From: Escherichia coli
Lineage (GTDB): Bacteria > Pseudomonadota > Gammaproteobacteria > Enterobacterales > Enterobacteriaceae
Length of the DNA: 338 nt
Assembly: GCF_003334765.1 (NCBI RefSeq)
Contig: NZ_QOWT01000134.1
Strand: one strand, 5' to 3'
Under the pieces are notes generated by a model, which saw nothing but the letters and a program-made list of their open reading frames with translations, searched no databases and had not been told where the DNA came from. A program made the position numbers and the translations under genes. Positions 1-338 of this stretch are shown here, one piece after another (positions within the stretch are counted from its first letter, which is position 1; each line of letters opens with the position of its first letter).

Positions 1-179
1 AGACGGTCCATCCAGCCGAAGACACGGGGCTCCAGGGTCACCCACTGTGGAATGAGGCCAAAGTGCTGCGGCCAGAAACTGATACGTTGTTCATCAGGGA
101 CGAGGCTGGCAACCAGTTGTTGCAGGTCAGTCTCCGGTGCTGAGACCGAAGAGGTGGTGTTCTGAGACAATGTTTTCAT
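1..179 (-). CDS. Hypothetical protein, N-terminal fragment (59 codons; continues beyond the window start). Visible sequence: MKTLSQNTTSSVSAPETDLQQLVASLVPDEQRISFWPQHFGLIPQWVTLEPRVFGWMDR...
   Basis: ATG at 179-177 on the minus strand is preceded by AAGGA with an 8-nt spacer. The same frame carries stops just upstream (TGA at 251-249, 248-246 and 242-240) and no other ATG/GTG/TTG between them and 179, so an N-terminal extension is excluded. The frame is open to the window edge. Codon usage is enterobacterial-like: Arg is CGT three times, Leu mostly CTG/CTC, Gly GGC, about 64% GC at third positions. The aligned plus-strand frame would need rare CGG/AGG Arg codons. Confidence 0.7.
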   Translation of the reverse strand, partial: MKTLSQNTTSSVSAPETDLQQLVASLVPDEQRISFWPQHFGLIPQWVTLEPRVFGWMDR

Positions 180-187
180 ATGTGAAA

Positions 188-192
188 TCCTT
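188..192 (-). promoter_or_regulatory. Shine-Dalgarno / ribosome-binding site (AAGGA) for the CDS starting at 179
   Basis: Minus-strand AAGGA (plus-strand tcctt at 188-192) lies 8 nt upstream of the ATG, a canonical spacing. Confidence 0.6.
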
Positions 193-273
193 GTAGTGTG
201 AATAAATGCGAGGAAGTAAAGGTCGGGTGGCTGATAACATCACGTTCATCACTGACCGTGAGACCCGGTAATA

Positions 274-338
274 TCAGGGATGAATGATATTCGGCTGAAA
301 TTCCGGACAGCCGTACGCGTAACCGTTCCGGTCACAGA
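274..338 (-). CDS. Possible 3' end of an upstream minus-strand gene (hypothetical protein; last 20 codons ...CDRNGYAYGCPEFQPNIIHP, stop TGA at 276-274)
   Basis: A minus-strand frame is open from the window edge to the TGA at 276-274 and uses mostly common codons (CCG, GCG, GGC, TAC, AAC). A second minus frame is also open, ending at TGA 251-249 (...SVTGTVTRTAVRNFSRISFIPDITGSHGQ), but it contains the rarer ATA, CGA and GGA codons. With under 30 codons visible the choice is not secure, and neither frame may be coding. Confidence 0.3.
   Translation of the reverse strand, partial: CDRNGYAYGCPEFQPNIIHP

Follow-up and report, generated by a model that had tools for sequence, protein, structure and literature searches.

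The stretch upstream of an Escherichia coli antirestriction gene as the probable 3′ end of a decayed small four-cysteine gene

Reading frames at the window edge and the gene map

Which gene, if any, lies directly upstream of the antirestriction gene in the 338-nt stretch of E. coli DNA analysed here (the window)? The sequence-only reading of this stretch had left three frames in competition between positions 274 and 338: two minus-strand frames open from the window edge, with stops at 276-274 and 251-249, and a plus-strand frame open from an ATG at 280 to position 338. All three are indeed present. Read from 336 on the minus strand, the first gives CDRNGYAYGCPEFQPNIIHP followed by the TGA at 276-274; read from 338, the second gives SVTGTVTRTAVRNFSRISFIPDITGSHGQ, ending in ...ITGSHGQ before the TGA at 251-249, and the third minus-strand frame closes immediately (CTG TGA). 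Chance alone would produce runs this long (21, 30 and 19 codons) with probabilities of ~0.37, ~0.24 and ~0.40, and the window by itself could therefore not decide between the frames. Extending the sequence past position 338, as had been proposed, does settle the matter: the frame ending at 276-274 is the one with homologs, though it turns out to be startless and only 68 codons long.

The window matches five E. coli chromosomes at 100%, among them that of strain 042 (NC_017626.1 4835115-4835452), and close relatives of it occur in 4,418 of 5,426 complete genomes. In 042 and EJN001 the RefSeq start of the antirestriction gene is an ATG at 179-177, and not at position 180. Of the two intergenic lengths considered earlier (about 94 or about 69 nt), the first describes the spacer exactly. 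However, the annotated gap corresponds to neither; it measures 301 nt because the nearest intact upstream gene encodes a DUF932 protein and lies beyond the window, its stop codon being situated 143 nt past the window edge in 042 and EJN001 (window-equivalent 483-481, where the numbering of the window is continued upstream). In both strains RefSeq places no feature whatsoever within these 301 nt. The features of the locus are collected in Table 1.

The gene order in 042 is Ag43, membrane protein, IrmA, DUF905, DUF932, the gap, antirestriction, RadC, DUF987, CbeA and CbtA, followed by DUF5983 (partial), DUF957 and DUF4942. Two further features of the 042 island, an integrase fragment and a DUF5983 gene that is truncated (L001 2190-2304 and 3831-4028), fit a general decay of the element adjoining cadC in this strain.

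Table 1. Features in and next to the window (positions are those of the window, continued upstream; L001 numbering refers to the 042 locus)
Feature	Positions	Strand	Basis
Antirestriction gene, 5′ part (WP_000855083.1)	1..179	-	RefSeq annotation of identical sequence, E. coli 042 and EJN001
Spacer of 94 nt, small-gene stop to antirestriction ATG	180..273	-	Sequence, promoter and terminator scan
Probable end of decayed small Cys4 gene, 20 sense codons and TGA 276-274	274..338	-	Translation, homologs, alignment
Second minus frame, 35-aa ATG ORF (window-equivalent 356 to 249)	249..338	-	Out of frame inside small gene
Start of 337-aa shadow ORF	280..338	+	Codon-for-codon antisense to DUF932
DUF932 gene	window-equivalent 481-1299 (L001 6481-7299)	-	RefSeq

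A small gene intact elsewhere and broken at this locus

Followed upstream, the frame with its stop at 276-274 shows no further stop for 68 codons, and no ATG, GTG or TTG, until it reaches the DUF932 TGA; in 042 it shares the DUF932 reading frame. An open stretch of this length has a chance probability of ~0.04 and is what is expected of a recently inactivated gene. The 68-aa translation matches 96 proteins, the best with an E value of 1.7e-35 at 95% identity. Full-length forms of 81-84 aa are found in Escherichia, Mixta, Citrobacter, Enterobacter, Yokenella, Klebsiella, Salmonella and Hafnia; E. coli has the 81-aa form, and the 84-aa form is that of Mixta, Citrobacter, Enterobacter, Yokenella, Klebsiella and others. 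One full-length sequence reads MQHVPEGVIQAPESPDAPEALPGCRSISDDDLCAWCTRLLYRPGEISLCRLSTGNGIWPSVCDRNGYAYGCPEFQPNIIHP. An intact CDS, WP_001164966.1, is annotated as "hypothetical protein" at the same position in E. coli EC9682, 83972 and GPEC1354, and related accessions are annotated in MEI003 and O103:H2 12009.

In the intact E. coli copies the ATG of this small gene shares one base with the DUF932 stop codon (TGATG), and 93 nt separate its stop from the antirestriction ATG. We retrieved 28 loci from other species (Yokenella, Hafnia, Mixta, Salmonella diarizonae, Yersinia, Serratia, Rahnella, Kosakonia and others) and found DUF932 directly upstream in 24 of the 28 and an antirestriction homolog downstream in 24 of the 28; the same-strand succession of DUF932, small gene and antirestriction gene is also that of the window locus. 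The stop/start overlap, as TGATG or TAATG, occurs in 18 of the 21 loci whose match starts at the ATG. As a feature of the sequence, this overlap suggests that translation of the two genes might be coupled.

Substitutions among 17 intact copies concentrate at third codon positions. The median pairwise dN/dS (Nei-Gojobori) is 0.22 over the small ORF, 0.12 within its core (residues 23-60) and 0.10 over DUF932, while the same alignment read in the two shifted frames gives 1.25 and 1.60. From this contrast we conclude that the favoured frame is truly coding and, across Enterobacterales, under purifying selection and that the second minus frame is noncoding. The earlier preference for the 276-274 frame was thus well placed as regards the frame of the conserved gene; what it could not see is that the gene is not intact here.

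Aligned at the DNA level with an intact copy, the 042 sequence lacks 38 nt directly after codon 6. The endpoints of the deletion are apparently two short AGGCG repeats. The frame is shifted by the deletion, so that the ATG (window-equivalent 481-479), which still overlaps the DUF932 stop, is out of frame with the remnant and yields only the 15-aa peptide MQPVPEGAAGMSFHF before a stop. Left without a start are 63 homologous codons, which align to residues 19-81 of WP_001164966.1 and run past the window to window-equivalent 480 at the outer limit of the open stretch. Two substitutions have changed residues that are invariant among 38 homologs, C36Y (CAWC to CAWY) and W58R (in GIRPS). The window copy therefore agrees with WP_001164966.1 in locus, frame, flanks and ~95% of its DNA sequence, but it differs in the missing 38 nt near the 5′ end, in having no in-frame start, in both substitutions and in being unannotated; homology and synteny place it in the family, whereas an open frame of 81-84 codons and the conserved C36 and W58 are lacking.

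We therefore consider it very probable (about 0.9) that positions 274-338 are the 3′ end of a pseudogene, a small gene for a four-cysteine (Cys4) protein killed by the 38-nt deletion. The course of events would have begun with a parent gene of 81 codons (84 in other genera) between DUF932 and the antirestriction gene. Loss of the 38 nt would have thrown the frame out of register after codon 6 and reduced the product of the ATG to the short peptide, and the codons left behind would have come to stand, by accident, in frame behind the DUF932 TGA; the changes at the two invariant residues would be further damage to the remnant. Most likely the remnant is now merely transcribed spacer within a DUF932-to-antirestriction transcript, although it could still be translated at a low level, for instance by read-through of the TGA from the in-frame DUF932 gene.

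A perfect 7-bp hairpin, TCAGTCT-GTGC-AGACTGA, is found on the minus strand at window-equivalent 366-383 (L001 6366-6383), at the codons for the invariant residues S-L-C. No T-run follows it, and it may be nothing more than a consequence of the coding sequence.

With the full 301-nt query covered, the allele carrying the 38-nt deletion (del38) was found in ~60 of the 2,595 records that hold the spacer, including 042, 55989, ETEC H10407 and O104:H4 outbreak strains, and in none of these records does RefSeq annotate the remnant. Since ~60 independent complete genomes carry it, an assembly error is unlikely. The LD39-1 lineage, ~97% identical overall, has the same deletion and a base-identical remnant, with all differences confined to the downstream spacer. 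This pattern points to a single deletion event that later spread by recombination. In this one other del38 lineage examined, the zero divergence of the remnant gives no signal of selection.

The del38 allele is one case among several. The E. coli collection has 4,261 matching places in all. In a sample of 14 evenly spaced E. coli copies, the gene was intact in five and broken in the other nine, by conversion of W58 to a stop (3), a 2-nt insertion (3), a 2-nt deletion, a change of the ATG to ATA or a 76-nt deletion. Across all E. coli copies examined there are at least six kinds of lesion (del38, del2, ins2, W58stop, ATG>ATA and del76). Together with the purifying selection seen elsewhere, the nine broken copies indicate that the gene is decaying repeatedly in E. 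coli islands while it is conserved across other genera, which fits loss in CP4-like islands after chromosomal fixation. In K-12, no copy or remnant was found in the CP4-57 stretch or in the thrW-proximal part of CP4-6, and the small gene has therefore no K-12 name. The antirestriction and RadC homologs of CP4-57 in MG1655 are known as lfgA and lfgB (formerly yfjX and yfjY) from a study of the LfgB protease (PMC10846083), and these names are now used in RefSeq for MG1655 (L049 17920-18869).

Operon context and competing readings of the stretch

Whether the downstream gene belongs to an operon had been left to depend on the choice of frame. Seen from the arrangement of the genes, co-transcription from DUF932 to the antirestriction gene is likely. 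In Yokenella, Hafnia, Mixta, Affinibrenneria, Enterobacter and Leclercia only 15-16 nt separate the stop of the small gene from the antirestriction ATG, and a conjugative Klebsiella plasmid (IncFIB/IncHI1B) with the same module from DUF905 to CbtA has an equivalent gap of 16 nt. No sigma-70 consensus promoter and no intrinsic terminator were found between L001 6100 and 6600. The antirestriction ATG is preceded, at a distance of 8 nt, by a Shine–Dalgarno-like AAGGA (192-188). The Ag43 gene fluC and yfjQ (DUF932) have been reported to rise together in E. coli Nissle (PMC11056357).

The stretch might be thought to serve mainly in regulation, as promoter, 5′ UTR or small RNA of the antirestriction operon, with its coding appearance being incidental. 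It does lie directly upstream of the antirestriction gene, and the E. coli spacer (93-94 nt) is longer than that of other genera. However, besides the promoter and terminator scan, a search for Rfam families on both strands of L001 5600-7400 had no match, the RNA of the 301-nt gap has an unremarkable predicted fold (z = -1.2), and the substitution pattern across genera is of the protein-coding type. We regard a mainly regulatory role as improbable.

The open frame behind the DUF932 TGA raises a different possibility, namely that ribosomes reading through this stop translate the remnant as an extension at the C-terminus of DUF932. The 68 codons in register with DUF932 and the persistence of the del38 allele in ~60 complete genomes could be taken in its favour. 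In the intact copies and in other genera, however, the small gene and DUF932 overlap by one base and are read in different frames; their being in frame here is thus a side effect that a deletion has a 1-in-3 chance of producing. The changes at two invariant positions also speak against an extension, as does the identity of the remnant in all del38 copies examined, which carries no mark of selection. An extended DUF932 protein, the continuity of which is limited to the del38 allele and not conserved among homologous loci, was accordingly rejected and is very improbable.

As to the second minus frame, it has an ATG, it appears as a listed ORF, and the databases do contain proteins with its ending, ...ITGSHGQ (P0069, 90 aa, and relatives). 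These proteins, however, are products of the small Cys4 gene itself, in which 2 nt inserted at nucleotide 155 have shifted translation to the second frame, and it is only in alleles with this insertion that the second frame is read. Upstream the frame closes after 38 codons. It has no family match, the two shifted-frame dN/dS values are both above those of the small ORF, and a conservation of this frame at low dN/dS across other genera was tested for and not found. That a real upstream gene should end at 251-249 is thus extremely improbable.

Practically negligible is the chance that a genuine antisense gene is encoded by the plus-strand ORF (337 aa, L001 6280-7293). Its length is unusual, and the frame is open in each of the four E. 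coli copies examined (209-339 codons). Yet its codons are in exact register with those of DUF932 on the opposite strand, NCBIfam has no family that matches it, and in most of the other genera sampled the frame falls into runs of 81-153 codons, as other antisense frames do. The minus strand, by contrast, encodes DUF932, a conserved gene that RefSeq annotates and on which purifying selection is strong. One locus from another genus (L032) is an exception, with 265 open codons. The openness in E. coli has a plain cause, since the 273 codons of DUF932 include no TTA, no TCA and only one CTA, the complements of which are stops; elsewhere, in most of the genera sampled, DUF932 contains 3-9 of these codons and the antisense frame is interrupted. 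The outcome named beforehand as speaking against the favoured frame was a long plus-strand ORF that begins at 280 and has homologs; the length is there, but a family match and conservation outside E. coli are not.

The gene map is with this settled, with the ATG at 179, a 94-nt spacer, a dead small gene and a functional DUF932 gene, and the empty RefSeq gap is explained. For the window itself the result is bookkeeping, an ordinary unannotated pseudogene.

The four-cysteine family

Many UniProt and NCBI entries name the small protein "Antirestriction protein", for example Q1RDD9 of UTI89. We found no ground for regarding it as an ArdB/KlcA antirestriction protein (PF03230), and this candidate was rejected: a Pfam scan detected no PF03230 domain in any of the 38 small proteins, and NCBIfam and PADLOC were also empty. 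Only P0076 among the matches has a PF03230 domain, and it looks like the product of a fused gene call. The small gene and the ArdB/KlcA genes are adjacent, in the same orientation and probably in the same operon, and both occur on conjugative plasmids and islands, but there is no sequence relationship between the proteins. The label seems to have been taken over from the adjacent gene or to stem from fused calls of the P0076 kind; it has no supporting homology and should not be relied on.

By tblastn the small gene was found on 1,175 plasmid records, mostly from Klebsiella, of which 1,132 are predicted to be conjugative, and phage records gave no match. A stand-alone copy lies near ardA on the Yersinia ruckeri plasmid pYR6. 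An 84-aa homolog, WP_009652519.1, is encoded by the Klebsiella pneumoniae plasmid p1-7011.62-NDM1, with the block DUF905 / DUF932 / small gene / antirestriction / RadC / DUF987 / YeeU / CbtA / DUF5983 / DUF957. On this conjugative plasmid (IncFIB/IncHI1B, MOBH) the island block from DUF905 to DUF957 is intact and tightly packed (L034 6183-7745). The plasmid-borne block suggests that the module of the "CP4-type cryptic prophage" originates from a conjugative element.

A profile search of 1.84 billion representatives gathered 302 clusters (representatives at 50% identity) around the core S-I-S-D-D-D-L-C-x-x-C-x4-Y-x-P-G-x2-S-x-C ... W-P ... D-x2-G-Y-x3-C. Among 87 diverse homologs C33, C36 and C49 are invariant and C71 and W58 nearly so. 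The core is found mostly in stand-alone proteins of 55-115 aa and sometimes as the N- or C-terminal domain of proteins of 160-290 aa. Distant members are neighbours of PilS/DotD conjugation genes or belong to series of small ORFs that share a strand. Among the larger relatives (P0120, 232 aa; P0200, 211 aa; P0107, P0123, P0131 and P0159) there is one with two tandem copies of the Cys4 core and another with a DUF6876 fusion, and several proteins of 180-290 aa have the core at the C-terminus behind N-terminal parts that match no family.

The core itself is covered by no Pfam family, DUF6876 being located elsewhere in one distant member, and neither the small protein nor its larger fusion relatives have a family in NCBIfam, PHROGs or PADLOC; there was a weak match to a PHROG tail protein (E = 0.29), and two PHROGs of unknown function matched one fusion protein at ~1e-3. 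In a sequence search of the PDB the first profile gave only a chance-level match (cytochrome c550, E = 0.04) and the deeper profile none, and the family has no fold match in the PDB. The AlphaFold2 model reached a pLDDT of 45 with 38 close homologs and of 84.6 with the deeper alignment of 87 sequences. A literature search by accession and by the combination of DUF932 and antirestriction returned no description of the small protein.

The family resembles Cys4 zinc modules such as zinc ribbons, treble clefs and the RecR zinc finger in the spacing of its cysteines, CxxC...C...C within ~40 residues, and in a predicted fold that would be small and mostly beta. Judging from their conservation, the four cysteines may bind a metal. 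Our best guess, from genomic context and the conserved cysteines, is that the gene encodes a small Cys4 metal-binding protein made together with DUF932 that would act in the establishment of conjugative elements or against host defence. The wider proposal is that the intact gene stands for an undescribed four-cysteine family, borne for the most part by conjugative plasmids and integrative islands and translationally coupled to DUF932, whose members might either be new factors of establishment or anti-defence or depend on DUF932 as obligate partners; it is put forward tentatively, as we think it possible rather than probable. The Cys4 family would be a reasonable candidate for inclusion in screens for plasmid-establishment genes.
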